This document shows positions 29,313 to 44,562 of a stretch of 64,000 nt of DNA, piece by piece. A program made the position numbers and the translations under genes. Position 1 is the stretch's first letter, and every line of letters begins with the position of its first letter. This DNA comes from Escherichia coli (GTDB taxonomy: Bacteria > Pseudomonadota > Gammaproteobacteria > Enterobacterales > Enterobacteriaceae): NCBI RefSeq assembly GCF_030013595.1, contig NZ_CP122768.1. One strand, written 5' to 3'. The notes under the pieces are model-generated. The model saw only the letters and a program-made list of their open reading frames with translations. It was not told where the DNA came from and did no database searches.

Positions 29313-29612
29313 GGCACATATTCCTCACAAAAAGAAGAAAGGATCTCAAAACGCTTTTTTCAGCGAAAAATCACCGCTGCCAGATCCTTTCTTTTTTTAA
29401 GAAAACTCTATTAAACAACAGGTTAGCCAGAAGAAGAACGGATCTGCTTTTTCCCTGAAAATTTTCATAAATAGCGCGTTTTTGCGCGTCCCCAGACCCT
29501 CGGTGTTTCAGGTTCCAGAAAGGACCCGTTGAAATGGGAGTAATTATCATTTACACGCTCTAACACCTGCATTATCGCAACCCCTCACACAGAAGGGCTG
29601 CTGTAATGCCTG

Positions 29613-32453: not shown

Positions 32454-32528
<75 letters not shown>

Positions 32529-32531
32529 ATA

Positions 32532-32607
<76 letters not shown>

Positions 32608-32609
32608 AC

Positions 32610-32686
32610 TGGACCGCCACCGGGGACTCGAACCTCGCACACTCAACTTAAAGGGTTGACGCTCTTTCCCGATGAGCTAGTGGCGG
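32610..32686 (-). tRNA. tRNA with nominal anticodon UUU (Lys) but atypical anticodon loop (C at position 33)
   Basis: Acceptor ccgccac/gtggcgg, GGTTCGAGTCC T-loop, anticodon arm tcaac-CCTTTAA-gttga; one mismatch in the T-stem. Confidence 0.45.
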
Positions 32687-32687
32687 T

Positions 32688-32763
32688 TGGTGGCCCTTGC
32701 TGGATTTGAACCAGCGACCTGGCGATTATGAGTCGCTCGCTCTCACCACTGAGCTAAAGGGCC
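32688..32763 (-). tRNA. tRNA-Ile2 (anticodon CAU, ileX/ileZ-like)
   Basis: Sequence closely resembles E. coli minor tRNA-Ile (GGCCC.TTAGCTCAGTGGT.AGAGC…GACTCATAATCGC…GGTTCAA.TCC…GGGCCACCA). Confidence 0.7.
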
Positions 32764-36108: not shown

Positions 36109-36264
36109 TTACTCCTCAGGTTCGTAAGCTGTGAAGACAGCGACCTCCGTCTGGCCGGTTCGGATTCGTACCTCGCAGAGGTCTTTCCTCGTTACCAGTG
36201 CCGTCACTATGACGGTTAAACAGATGACGATCAGGGCGATTAACATCGCCTTTTGCTGCTTCAT
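36109..36264 (-). CDS. hok: Hok/Gef-family type I toxin (51 aa), absent from the ORF track
   Basis: Hand translation: MKQQKAMLIALIVICLTVIVTALVTRKDLCEVRIRTGQTEVAVFTAYEPEE; SD aggag upstream; overlapping short mok-like frame; hallmark Hok TM domain and conserved Cys. Confidence 0.85.
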   Translation of the reverse strand: MKQQKAMLIALIVICLTVIVTALVTRKDLCEVRIRTGQTEVAVFTAYEPEE

Positions 36265-36554
36265 AGCCTGCTTCTCCTTGACCTTTCGGTCCGTAAGAGG
36301 CTAATCTCTATGTGTCGCATAGATATGGCCTCAGATTAATGTTAAGCGTCTTGCAGGACGCGTAATGTTAACTGGGGCTTTTCTCTATCTGCCTTTTGGT
36401 GTTCATGCCTGAGGCAGATAGCCTCAAGCACCCGCAGCAATTCTACTTAACTCTCCTTTTCCCGCAAACCGTTTTTATCCCCATCGGCAAATCGAATACA
36501 CCACCAACGCCACCGCCATCGCAATTCCTACTGTAGTGAATGCCTCAGGCCAGG

Positions 36555-43671: not shown

Positions 43672-43929
43672 GGATAAGAATCCGGCACTGACAGTTTACT
43701 GAAAGGATATATCCCTGAAAAGTCAGGGCATAACGCGAAAGCGCACGGCGGAGGTGTCTTTTCCTTAGAAGGCTTGTCGTTAGATTTCTTCGATTGTGCG
43801 CTTCCGGTTGTAGCACTCCGCGAAATGGCGCGGCGGTAAGTATGGCGGGGTTATTCCTTCCCCGTTGAGGACACCGGGTTGTCAGGTTGACCATACGCTT
43901 AAGTGACAACCCCGCTGCAACAACCCATG

Positions 43930-43988
43930 TTGATTACCTTTTGGTGGGTATCCGTTTTTTGTTTTCCCTTGTGATACCCGCCCTTTTT
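43930..43988 (+). ncRNA. DicF-like small RNA (terminator-ended)
   Basis: Hairpin ggtgggtatc…gatacccgcc plus T5 at 43943-43988, about 185 bp upstream of the DicB homologue; Qin-like gene order. Confidence 0.45.
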
Positions 43989-44173
43989 AAAGTGAATTTT
44001 GTGATGCGGTGAATGCGGCTCAGCGCACGCGGAACAGTTAAAAAAGTGATCGGTACTCTGTATTTGTTTTATGGAGTTGGTTTCCCTGTATTCCGGCGTT
44101 AATTGTTAACTGGTTAACGTCACCTGGAGGCACCAGGCACCGCATCACAAAATTCATTGTTGAGGACGCGATA

Positions 44174-44362
44174 ATGGAAACGTTATTACCAAACGTCAAT
44201 ACGTCTGAAGGTTGTTTTGAAATTGGTGTCAGAATCAGTAACCCTGTATTTACTGAAGATGCCATTAATAAGAGAAAACACGAACGGGAGCTATTAAATC
44301 AAATATGCATTGTTTCAATGCTGGCCCGTTTACGCCTGATGCAAAAAGGACGCTGCCAATGA
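44174..44362 (+). CDS. dicB: cell division inhibitor DicB homologue
   Basis: 62-aa ORF METLLPNVNTSEGCFEIGV.ISNPVFTEDAINKRK…ICIVSMLARLRLM, matching my recollection of Qin DicB. Confidence 0.75.
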   Translation: METLLPNVNTSEGCFEIGVRISNPVFTEDAINKRKHERELLNQICIVSMLARLRLMQKGRCQ

Positions 44363-44562
44363 ATACAGCATTTGCACTCGTTCTGACAGTTTTTCTTAAT
44401 ACAGGCGAACCAGTCGATCTTGTTATTGGTATACATGACTCAATGAAAGAATGCATGGCTGCCGCAGCGGAACAGAAAATTCCCGGCAACTGTTATCCGG
44501 TTGATAAAGTTATTCGCATGGACAATAACGAAATCCCGGCAGGACTTAAAACAGCACCGTAA
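44359..44562 (+). CDS. YdfD-like small protein
   Basis: Internal Met of track ORF 44305-44562 (MNTAFALVLTVFLNTGEPVD…), ~67 aa, immediately after dicB as in Qin. Confidence 0.5.
   Translation: MNTAFALVLTVFLNTGEPVDLVIGIHDSMKECMAAAAEQKIPGNCYPVDKVIRMDNNEIPAGLKTAP

Follow-up and report, generated by a model that had tools for sequence, protein, structure and literature searches.

In a 64,000-nucleotide stretch of Escherichia coli DNA (assembly GCF_030013595.1, contig NZ_CP122768.1; hereafter, the window), the cell-division inhibitor gene dicB is preceded by a 19-bp perfect inverted repeat, the arms of which probably pair as an RNase III-cut stalk in the plus-strand read-through transcript of the early-left operon. 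Judged by comparison of related sequences, this stalk (P1) is the closing helix of a pseudoknotted domain of approximately 165 nt, with the order P1-P2-pseudoknot-P3-P4. The left arm, TGAATTTTGTGATGCGGTG (43993-44011), is the exact reverse complement of 44138-44156 across a 126-nt spacer; the coordinates and the complementarity given in the initial annotation, which was made from the letters alone, were thus verified. Two extra pairs beyond the repeat, G43992·U44157 and A43991-U44158, extend the helix to 21 contiguous pairs. The features discussed below are the following.

About 43930-43988, plus strand: divergent allele of the sRNA found at the DicF position, with its own terminator hairpin and U-run.
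43993-44011, plus strand: left arm, the 5' strand of P1, supported by folding and by pairing in relatives; with A43991 and G43992 it forms the 21-bp helix.
44015-44030, plus strand: P2 hairpin, consisting of 3 bp, bulged A44027, 2 bp and the pentaloop UCAGC (family consensus UNNGC).
44035-44041, plus strand: pseudoknot 5' strand, CAGUUAA, complementary to the P3 loop.
44042-44096, plus strand: variable region of one or two hairpins, differing in length and sequence among copies.
44097-44119, plus strand: P3 hairpin, CGUUAA/UUAACG, with the loop at 44103-44113.
44106-44112, plus strand: pseudoknot 3' strand, UUAACUG, inside the P3 loop.
44120-44137, plus strand: invariant UCA followed by the P4 hairpin, CCUGG-AGGCA-CCAGG, directly abutting the P1 3' strand.
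44138-44156, plus strand: right arm, the 3' strand of P1, supported by folding and by pairing in relatives and extending to U44157 and U44158.
44162-44176, plus strand: dicB Shine-Dalgarno sequence GAGGA (44162-44166) and start codon (44174-44176).
44174-44362, plus strand: dicB, cell-division inhibitor of 62 aa, the gene proposed to be gated by this leader.

The dicB start codon lies 17 nt past the right arm, and dicB is followed by a DUF1482/ydfD-like gene and then by an exonuclease gene, an arrangement also seen in annotated E. coli prophages. When arms up to 600 nt apart were considered, this repeat was the longest in the window, and the same scan returned only one other inverted repeat of at least 16 nt. 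That second repeat (29330-29346 and 29382-29398) is A/T-rich, with arms of 17 nt that are 94% complementary and 35 nt apart. The search for additional copies of the 19-mer that the initial annotation had proposed was carried out across the window, and none was found with up to three mismatches allowed; in shuffled sequence, the mean number of matches was 0.04 and never reached two. Elsewhere in the window, there is a sok antitoxin RNA of the hok/sok type (108 bits; 36262-36433, minus strand) and a cluster of four tRNA genes (32457-32763, minus strand), both of which fit a lambdoid prophage with accessory (moron) genes.

The plus-strand RNA spanning 43985-44165 folds with a minimum free energy of -69.2 kcal/mol (z = -5.56), and P1 closes both the minimum free energy structure and the centroid structure. 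Because the repeat is perfect in the window, both strands of this copy fold equally well. Relatives differ in this respect: the K-12 arms (...GAUGUGGUG and CACUGCAUC...) contain two G·U pairs in the plus-strand RNA, each of which is an A×C mismatch on the opposite strand or in DNA. We assembled 41 distinct copies of the dicB subtype from E. coli genomes and viral contigs. MAFFT left a one-base bulge ungapped and placed the 3' arm off register in approximately half of the rows; therefore, the register was rebuilt by hand. Among the 779 cells given by 19 core pairs in 41 copies, there were 29 G·U pairs, 10 mismatches and four doubly compensated cells. In the register-corrected mini-alignment, 98.4% of the P1 cells pair, compared to 32-51% with the partner column shifted by 1-3 positions. 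Compensation on both sides is seen in two pairs, and variation by wobble alone in seven. For example, the compensated changes A-U > G-C and U-A > C-G are found in loci L039 and L059 (G-C at 44004/44145 and C-G at 43993/44156), and loci L038 and L040 represent half-changed intermediates (A×C at 44004/44145 and U·G at 43993/44156). The helix tolerates the one-base bulge, the position of which is fixed. All 41 copies retain pairs 20-21, and all 23 copies outside the dicB context retain pair 22, despite the differences in sequence past the right arm among the dicB, kil, rha and other contexts.

It should be noted that the distinct single-side changes in P1 comprise seven wobble types versus six mismatch types, that both compensated pairs come from a single lineage, and that the sequence of the arms is strongly conserved. 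Scanning a single genome per species yielded eight loci with almost no new arm variants and indicated that, apart from one divergent copy in Enterobacter, the dicB subtype hardly extends beyond Escherichia. Because relatives keep the pairing via G·U wobbles, the repeat appears to act as plus-strand RNA; with copies so closely related, these data make a modest case that P1 pairing is maintained at the RNA level on this strand. The long-range stem in the dicB 5' leader that had been proposed as one possibility for the repeat is supported by the folding (z = -5.6), by pairing in 98% of the cells, and by wobble and compensatory changes. The near-uninterrupted duplex of at least 20 bp (some two helical turns) expected of an RNase III stalk is present as the 21 contiguous pairs, and selection on RNA-level pairing is indicated by the same proportion of paired cells (98.4%).

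The link to RNase III comes from K-12, in which the dicBF transcript comprises ydfABC-dicF-dicB-ydfD and its RNase III processing (Faubladier, Cam and Bouché 1990) is summarised in PMC5069750, PMC9438474 and PMC10448788. The first two, citing the 1990 work, describe the 3' end of the 72-nt DicF species as an RNase III product of the full-length mRNA; the literature search returned no additional detail on this species beyond these two sources, and in Altuvia 2018 and Gordon 2017 DicF was present only as a citation. By arithmetic on secondary sources, the cut is placed at L001:2660-2665 in the K-12 locus, whether one counts 72 nt from the DicF 5' end or 19 nt on from the 3' end of the 53-nt terminated form. 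The K-12 arms occupy L001:2651-2669 and 2780-2798, and the predicted cut falls inside the left arm; transferred from the K-12 coordinates, it corresponds to approximately 44002-44007 in the window. We therefore strongly infer, by arithmetic from secondary sources, that P1 is the published K-12 dicBF RNase III site. The suggestion of the initial annotation that the repeat could be a processing signal gains support in this way, as the RNase III-dependent 72-nt end reported in these papers maps, by the same arithmetic, inside the homologous K-12 arm.

As a check, the same arithmetic was applied to the 190-nt RNase III-dependent DicF species, the 5' end of which was confirmed in 2023, and it places this end on the 3' strand of a stem of approximately 22 bp. 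In the window, this stem lies at 43736-43806 (plus strand) and is conserved with K-12, with the 5' end of the 190-nt precursor at the base of its 3' strand, at about 43805. Because the precursor 5' end maps to this stem, the operon appears to contain a pair of RNase III stalks, one on either side of the sRNA.

The K-12 locus is homologous to that of the window (87% identity over 43850-44400), and its matching arms likewise lie between the sRNA terminator and dicB. The K-12 helix contains two G·U pairs and encloses a shorter variable region, whereas the window helix is a perfect 19-mer. Furthermore, K-12 has DicF upstream, whereas the window has in its place a divergent allele not identified as DicF by Rfam. 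The DicF covariance model (RF00039), which scores 76.7 bits on K-12, gave no match anywhere in the window at the gathering score, and no match between 43300 and 44500 even at E ≤ 10. The allele in this position, UUUUGGUGGGUAUCCGUUUUUUGUUUUCCCUUGUGAUACCCGCCCUUUUU, keeps a DicF-like 5' end and the terminator but differs in the middle; its terminator hairpin is formed by 43943-43952 and 43973-43982, with the U-run at 43984-43988, and the 3' half of this terminator together with the U-run constitutes the outermost extension of P1. An identical allele is found in strain C012 (L002) and in the viral contigs L078 and L087. The earlier placement of the repeat "between dicF and dicB" has to be amended accordingly, as no canonical dicF precedes it (no RF00039 match at E ≤ 10) and the divergent allele stands in its place.

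RNase III sites of a comparable kind include the lambda N-leader site, which activates N translation, the T7 R1.1-type signals, and the 16S/23S stalks. As is proposed for P1, a long duplex between distant segments of a polycistronic transcript is cut in these phage early and rRNA stalks, separating functional RNAs and remodelling the 5' leader of the downstream cistron. These stalks have no sequence relation to P1, and P1 differs from them in enclosing a conserved pseudoknotted domain, which is encoded elsewhere by an sRNA gene standing on its own.

To define this domain, we scanned viral contigs with the invariant motif UCACCNGGAGGCACCNGRCACC and obtained 120 loci representing 106 distinct elements. 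The elements share a common plan: the P1 5' strand, GGUGAAU, P2 (a hairpin with a UNNGC loop and a bulged A), a linker, the variable region, P3, UCA, P4 (CCNGG-AGGCA-CCNGG) and the P1 3' strand, which begins with CACC. In 39 family representatives, P2, which is preceded by the invariant junction GGUG-AAU, is paired in 99% of the cells, and three of its five pairs are flipped (C-G to G-C or the reverse) between STnc100-type and dicB-type copies. P4 is paired in 99.5% of the cells and its middle pair covaries (G-C in 26, U-A in 12), and strong covariation is seen in the inner eight pairs of P1. Pair 9-166, for example, is GC in 25, AU in 12 and GU in two representatives, pair 10-165 is UA in 21, CG in 15 and UG in three, and neither is ever unpaired.

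P3 and the pseudoknot were analyzed sequence by sequence, the P3 alignment columns being out of register. The mean complementarity between the linker after P2 and the P3 loop is 5.3 nt within a copy, compared to 3.5 nt across copies, and the pseudoknot is kept by at least eight different covarying sequence pairs. The pair in the window copy is CAGUUAA/UUAACUG, and those found elsewhere include CCAGUC/GACUGG, CCAGCC/GGCUGG, CUGGUG/CACCAG, AUCAGCA/UGCUGAU and ACUGGAU/AUCCAGU. The Rfam structure line for RF02076 contains no pseudoknot, and the word was not found in a 2026 preprint on the Pas sRNAs. The invariant block UCACC-NGG-AGGCA-CCN-GG-CACC (44120-44141), present in all family members, contains a perfect Shine-Dalgarno-like GGAGG, and each of its three CACC repeats is able to pair with the invariant GGUG, making alternative pairings possible. 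A search for other Rfam families resembling the core (riboswitch, ribozyme or tRNA-like) yielded none. Four candidate identities considered for the domain were dropped as unsupported: an HK022-type put antiterminator RNA, a cobalamin-riboswitch-like GGUGAAAUCC motif, a CsrA site, and a tRNA-like RNase P substrate.

The closest described RNA is STnc100 (RF02076), which matches the window with 34.5 bits (E = 1.5e-5), below the gathering score of 47. The alignment spans exactly 43995-44151 and places the outer helix of the model on the inner part of the arms. The copies of K-12 and C012 score 34.4 and 35.2 bits, respectively. Canonical STnc100 copies, with a CCCCC/GGGG P2, pass the threshold (52-208 bits), and dicB-type copies, with a GCGGC/GCGC P2, fall below it. 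We considered membership in this family in three respects: (i) the structure is shared, given the covariation in the inner part of P1, P2 and P4 and the sequence-by-sequence analysis of P3 and the pseudoknot; (ii) the score of the window copy, 34.5 bits, is below the gathering score of 47; (iii) the window copy does not have the layout of a free-standing gene, having neither its own promoter nor a terminator after the right arm. Like the window copy, STnc100/PasD has the order P1 strand-GGUGAAU-P2 with a bulged A, then P3-UCACCNGGAGGCACCNGGCACC-P1 strand. The differences are in P2 (CCCCC.../...GGGG compared to GCGGC.../...GCGC), in the length of P1 (approximately 8-9 bp compared to 21-22 bp), and in location, STnc100/PasD being found in the late region near stx and the window copy inside the early-left operon. 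As far as sequence and structure comparison can tell, the window domain is a divergent, operon-embedded relative of STnc100/PasD and not a member of the family. In the papers searched, STnc100 and PasD are described as Hfq-dependent prophage sRNAs of the late region; this limited set of papers contained no mention of dicB, DicF or a pseudoknot in that connection.

Only the inner 8 bp or so of P1 are common to the whole family, and the length of the stalk differs with context. Stalk lengths are strict helix-extension counts, as wide-window duplex folding over-predicted interrupted helices in STnc100-type copies. When one bulge or mismatch was allowed, 31 of 36 dicB-type copies had at least 22 P1 pairs, and a sigma-70-like promoter ending 4-28 nt before P1 was found in none of the 36. 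The STnc100-type copies (n = 49) have a median of nine P1 pairs and a maximum of 15, and a promoter-like site TTGAC-N17-TAnnnT ending 4-28 nt before P1 is present in 21 of them. Loci with such a strong sigma-70-like promoter include L010, L018, L025, L030, L031, L037, L046, L051, L058 and L083. With a promoter that stops a few bases short of the P1 5' strand, transcription would start at the closing helix. The exceptions with a short P1 in the dicB type are P1/P7-like phage-plasmids, in which the element lies among tRNA genes in the C1-controlled ban operon. Copies with a long stalk are always located behind a DicF-type terminator in lambdoid early-left operons, and the genes that follow encode DicB, Kil (a septation inhibitor, phrog_294), a regulator of the Rha/anti-repressor type, or small proteins of unknown function. 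Given that P1 is just 8-9 bp or so in self-promoted family members, the long stalk has the appearance of an adaptation for embedding the module in, and cutting it out of, a polycistronic transcript.

Several observations concern the distribution of the family. STnc100-family copies adjoin or sit within tRNA arrays at L095:486-1488, L005:1368-2396 and L127:1705-3435 (phage P7); in L095, four tRNAs are followed by two copies, and the copies in the P7 ban operon and in a phage-plasmid are likewise associated with tRNAs. A tandem array of four copies is found at L048:5313-7117. Copies with 83-84% identity occur in MT713136.1 (Aeromonas phage AP1) and PP818812.1 (Actinobacillus phage vB_Apl-pPE4), and the element is also present in metagenome-assembled contigs labelled Collinsella, Nanosynbacter, Ruminococcus and Proteobacteria (loci L131 and L133-L135 are among these records). 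These odd-host phage and metagenomic records probably reflect contamination or mis-binning and not the true host range.

The following sequence of events is proposed. In the plus-strand read-through RNA of the early-left operon, the arms pair to form the 21-bp stalk P1, and the domain closed by it lies downstream of the DicF-position sRNA terminator and upstream of the ribosome-binding site of dicB. RNase III would then cleave the stalk on both strands, with a stagger. The cut in the left arm would produce an alternative 3' end for the upstream sRNA, separating it from the dicB mRNA, whereas the partner cut in the right arm, expected at approximately 44140-44149, would leave dicB with a leader of 25-34 nt. 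The double cut would free the folded core as a separate RNA of approximately 140 nt, and with the leader shortened, the Shine-Dalgarno sequence would no longer be held in the extended helix.

The last step can be compared with thermodynamic predictions. According to the partition function, the dicB Shine-Dalgarno sequence in the uncut RNA is mostly paired with the U-run and the 3' half of the upstream terminator, and the start codon is predicted to take part in this pairing. The predicted probability that this sequence is unpaired rises from 0.17 in the full transcript to 0.69 after a cut in the middle of P1 in the window, and the corresponding predictions are 0.07 and 0.31 for K-12, 0.02 and 0.49 for rha, and 0.18 and 0.58 for the open reading frame of L032. 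For kilR (0.47 and 0.45) and orf94 (0.34 and 0.33), the prediction is essentially unchanged. Occlusion followed by release is therefore predicted in four of the six contexts. Translational unmasking is plausible for dicB on these predictions; however, because occlusion of the Shine-Dalgarno sequence is not predicted for kilR and orf94, translational gating cannot be the general purpose of the stalk.

The fate of the core allows two further readings. Because cleavage of both strands would release the core, dicBF-type operons might encode a second stable RNA of the STnc100 class, liberated by RNase III; we put this forward tentatively and consider it somewhat doubtful. It is improbable, in our view, that the core is a cis-acting sensor, in which a protein, a ligand, temperature or the ribosome sets the fold and thereby decides whether P1 forms; if this were the case, the sensor would gate RNase III cleavage and the expression of dicB, kil and the genes of the anti-repressor type.

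Among the explanations that dispense with cleavage at P1, the one that survives best, although we judge it unlikely, is that P1 is purely architectural, closing the STnc100-like fold and perhaps masking the dicB ribosome-binding site, with the 72-nt DicF end produced from another structure. A closing P1 is present in every family member and in most of them is too short for RNase III (median of nine pairs), the mapping of the RNase III cut is indirect, and occlusion of the Shine-Dalgarno sequence is predicted even without cleavage. However, the extension of the helix from approximately 8 to 21-22 bp is restricted to operon-embedded copies and has no obvious role in closing the fold, and within 19 ± 5 nt downstream of the DicF terminator there is no alternative long duplex from which the 72-nt end could arise.

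A role of the repeat as DNA, either as a bipartite protein-binding site or as a cruciform, would agree with its perfection in the window DNA and with the good folding of both strands. It is nevertheless very improbable, because K-12 and many other copies are imperfect as DNA while exactly preserving the pairing of the plus-strand RNA, and because a one-base bulge is tolerated at a fixed position. Moreover, a spacing of 126 bp is atypical for operators.

Two readings of the repeat as a DNA element had been offered in the initial annotation, and neither withstands comparison with related loci. In the first, a miniature mobile element (MITE) entered the spacer separating the sRNA from dicB, and the arms are its terminal inverted repeats. 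Perfect 19-bp terminal repeats around a short non-coding segment are what such an element would show; ERIC/IRU and similar enterobacterial repeats are likewise short non-coding segments bounded by inverted repeats, and the module does precede several different genes. Unlike the ERIC/IRU-type elements, however, it is present in a single copy in the window, occupies a fixed syntenic position, has no target-site duplication (the flanks ...CCCTTTTTAAAG and TTGTTGAGGACG... contain no direct repeat), and is conserved at the RNA level. The module always lies behind a DicF-type terminator, in a constant operon slot and orientation, its arms diverge by RNA-compatible wobbles, and its inner segment is a conserved pseudoknotted RNA fold. 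In addition, deletion variants break inside the element and precise empty sites were not found: in L128 (E. coli N1024) and L129 (E. coli MB19), the two partial loci that were inspected, the deletion breakpoints are internal. Taken together, these observations leave a mobile element with hardly any probability. The loci L128 and L129 are decayed prophages, in which the deletion extends from truncated genes of the replication region to midway through the leader element; their dicB genes retain just the right half of the domain, lack the left arm, and thus represent natural stalk-less dicB alleles.

The second reading, in which the repeats are recombination sites of an invertible switch controlling dicB, is suggested by the presence of inverted repeats on both sides of a short segment that immediately precedes a toxic gene, but its probability is negligible: in a BLAST search of 5426 complete E. 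coli genomes, 4622 of which had matches, the natural orientation was matched over at least 80% of its length in 3772 genomes and the flipped allele (inner 126 nt reversed) in none of the 4622; among fetched loci, flank-anchored probes, which were used because with perfect arms the junction of arm and inner segment is identical in either orientation, identified 64 normal and no inverted copies; and no recombinase gene adjoins the element, its neighbours being dicB, the DUF1482 gene and the exonuclease gene.

With the RNase III-cut stalk as the preferred reading, the feature is largely known: it belongs to the RNase III processing of the dicBF transcript, and the window copy is another allele of the K-12 site. 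A conspicuous repeat is thereby accounted for by a recorded mechanism, and a mobile or switching element is unneeded. The family link, the pseudoknot and the recurrence of the module before dicB and kil appear to be unstated in the limited literature searched, and the 1994 paper of Faubladier and Bouché on dicF-like sequences may overlap with part of these points. What is modestly new is that the dicF-dicB spacer, found in most E. coli genomes including K-12, is a sub-threshold relative of STnc100/PasD, and that the same module precedes two unrelated septation inhibitors, DicB and Kil. None of these points would upset present views. Should the excised core prove stable, the dicBF operon would have an overlooked third RNA or protein product. 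The comparison also suggests a way in which a free-standing sRNA gene can become operon-embedded, through lengthening of its closing helix into an RNase III stalk.
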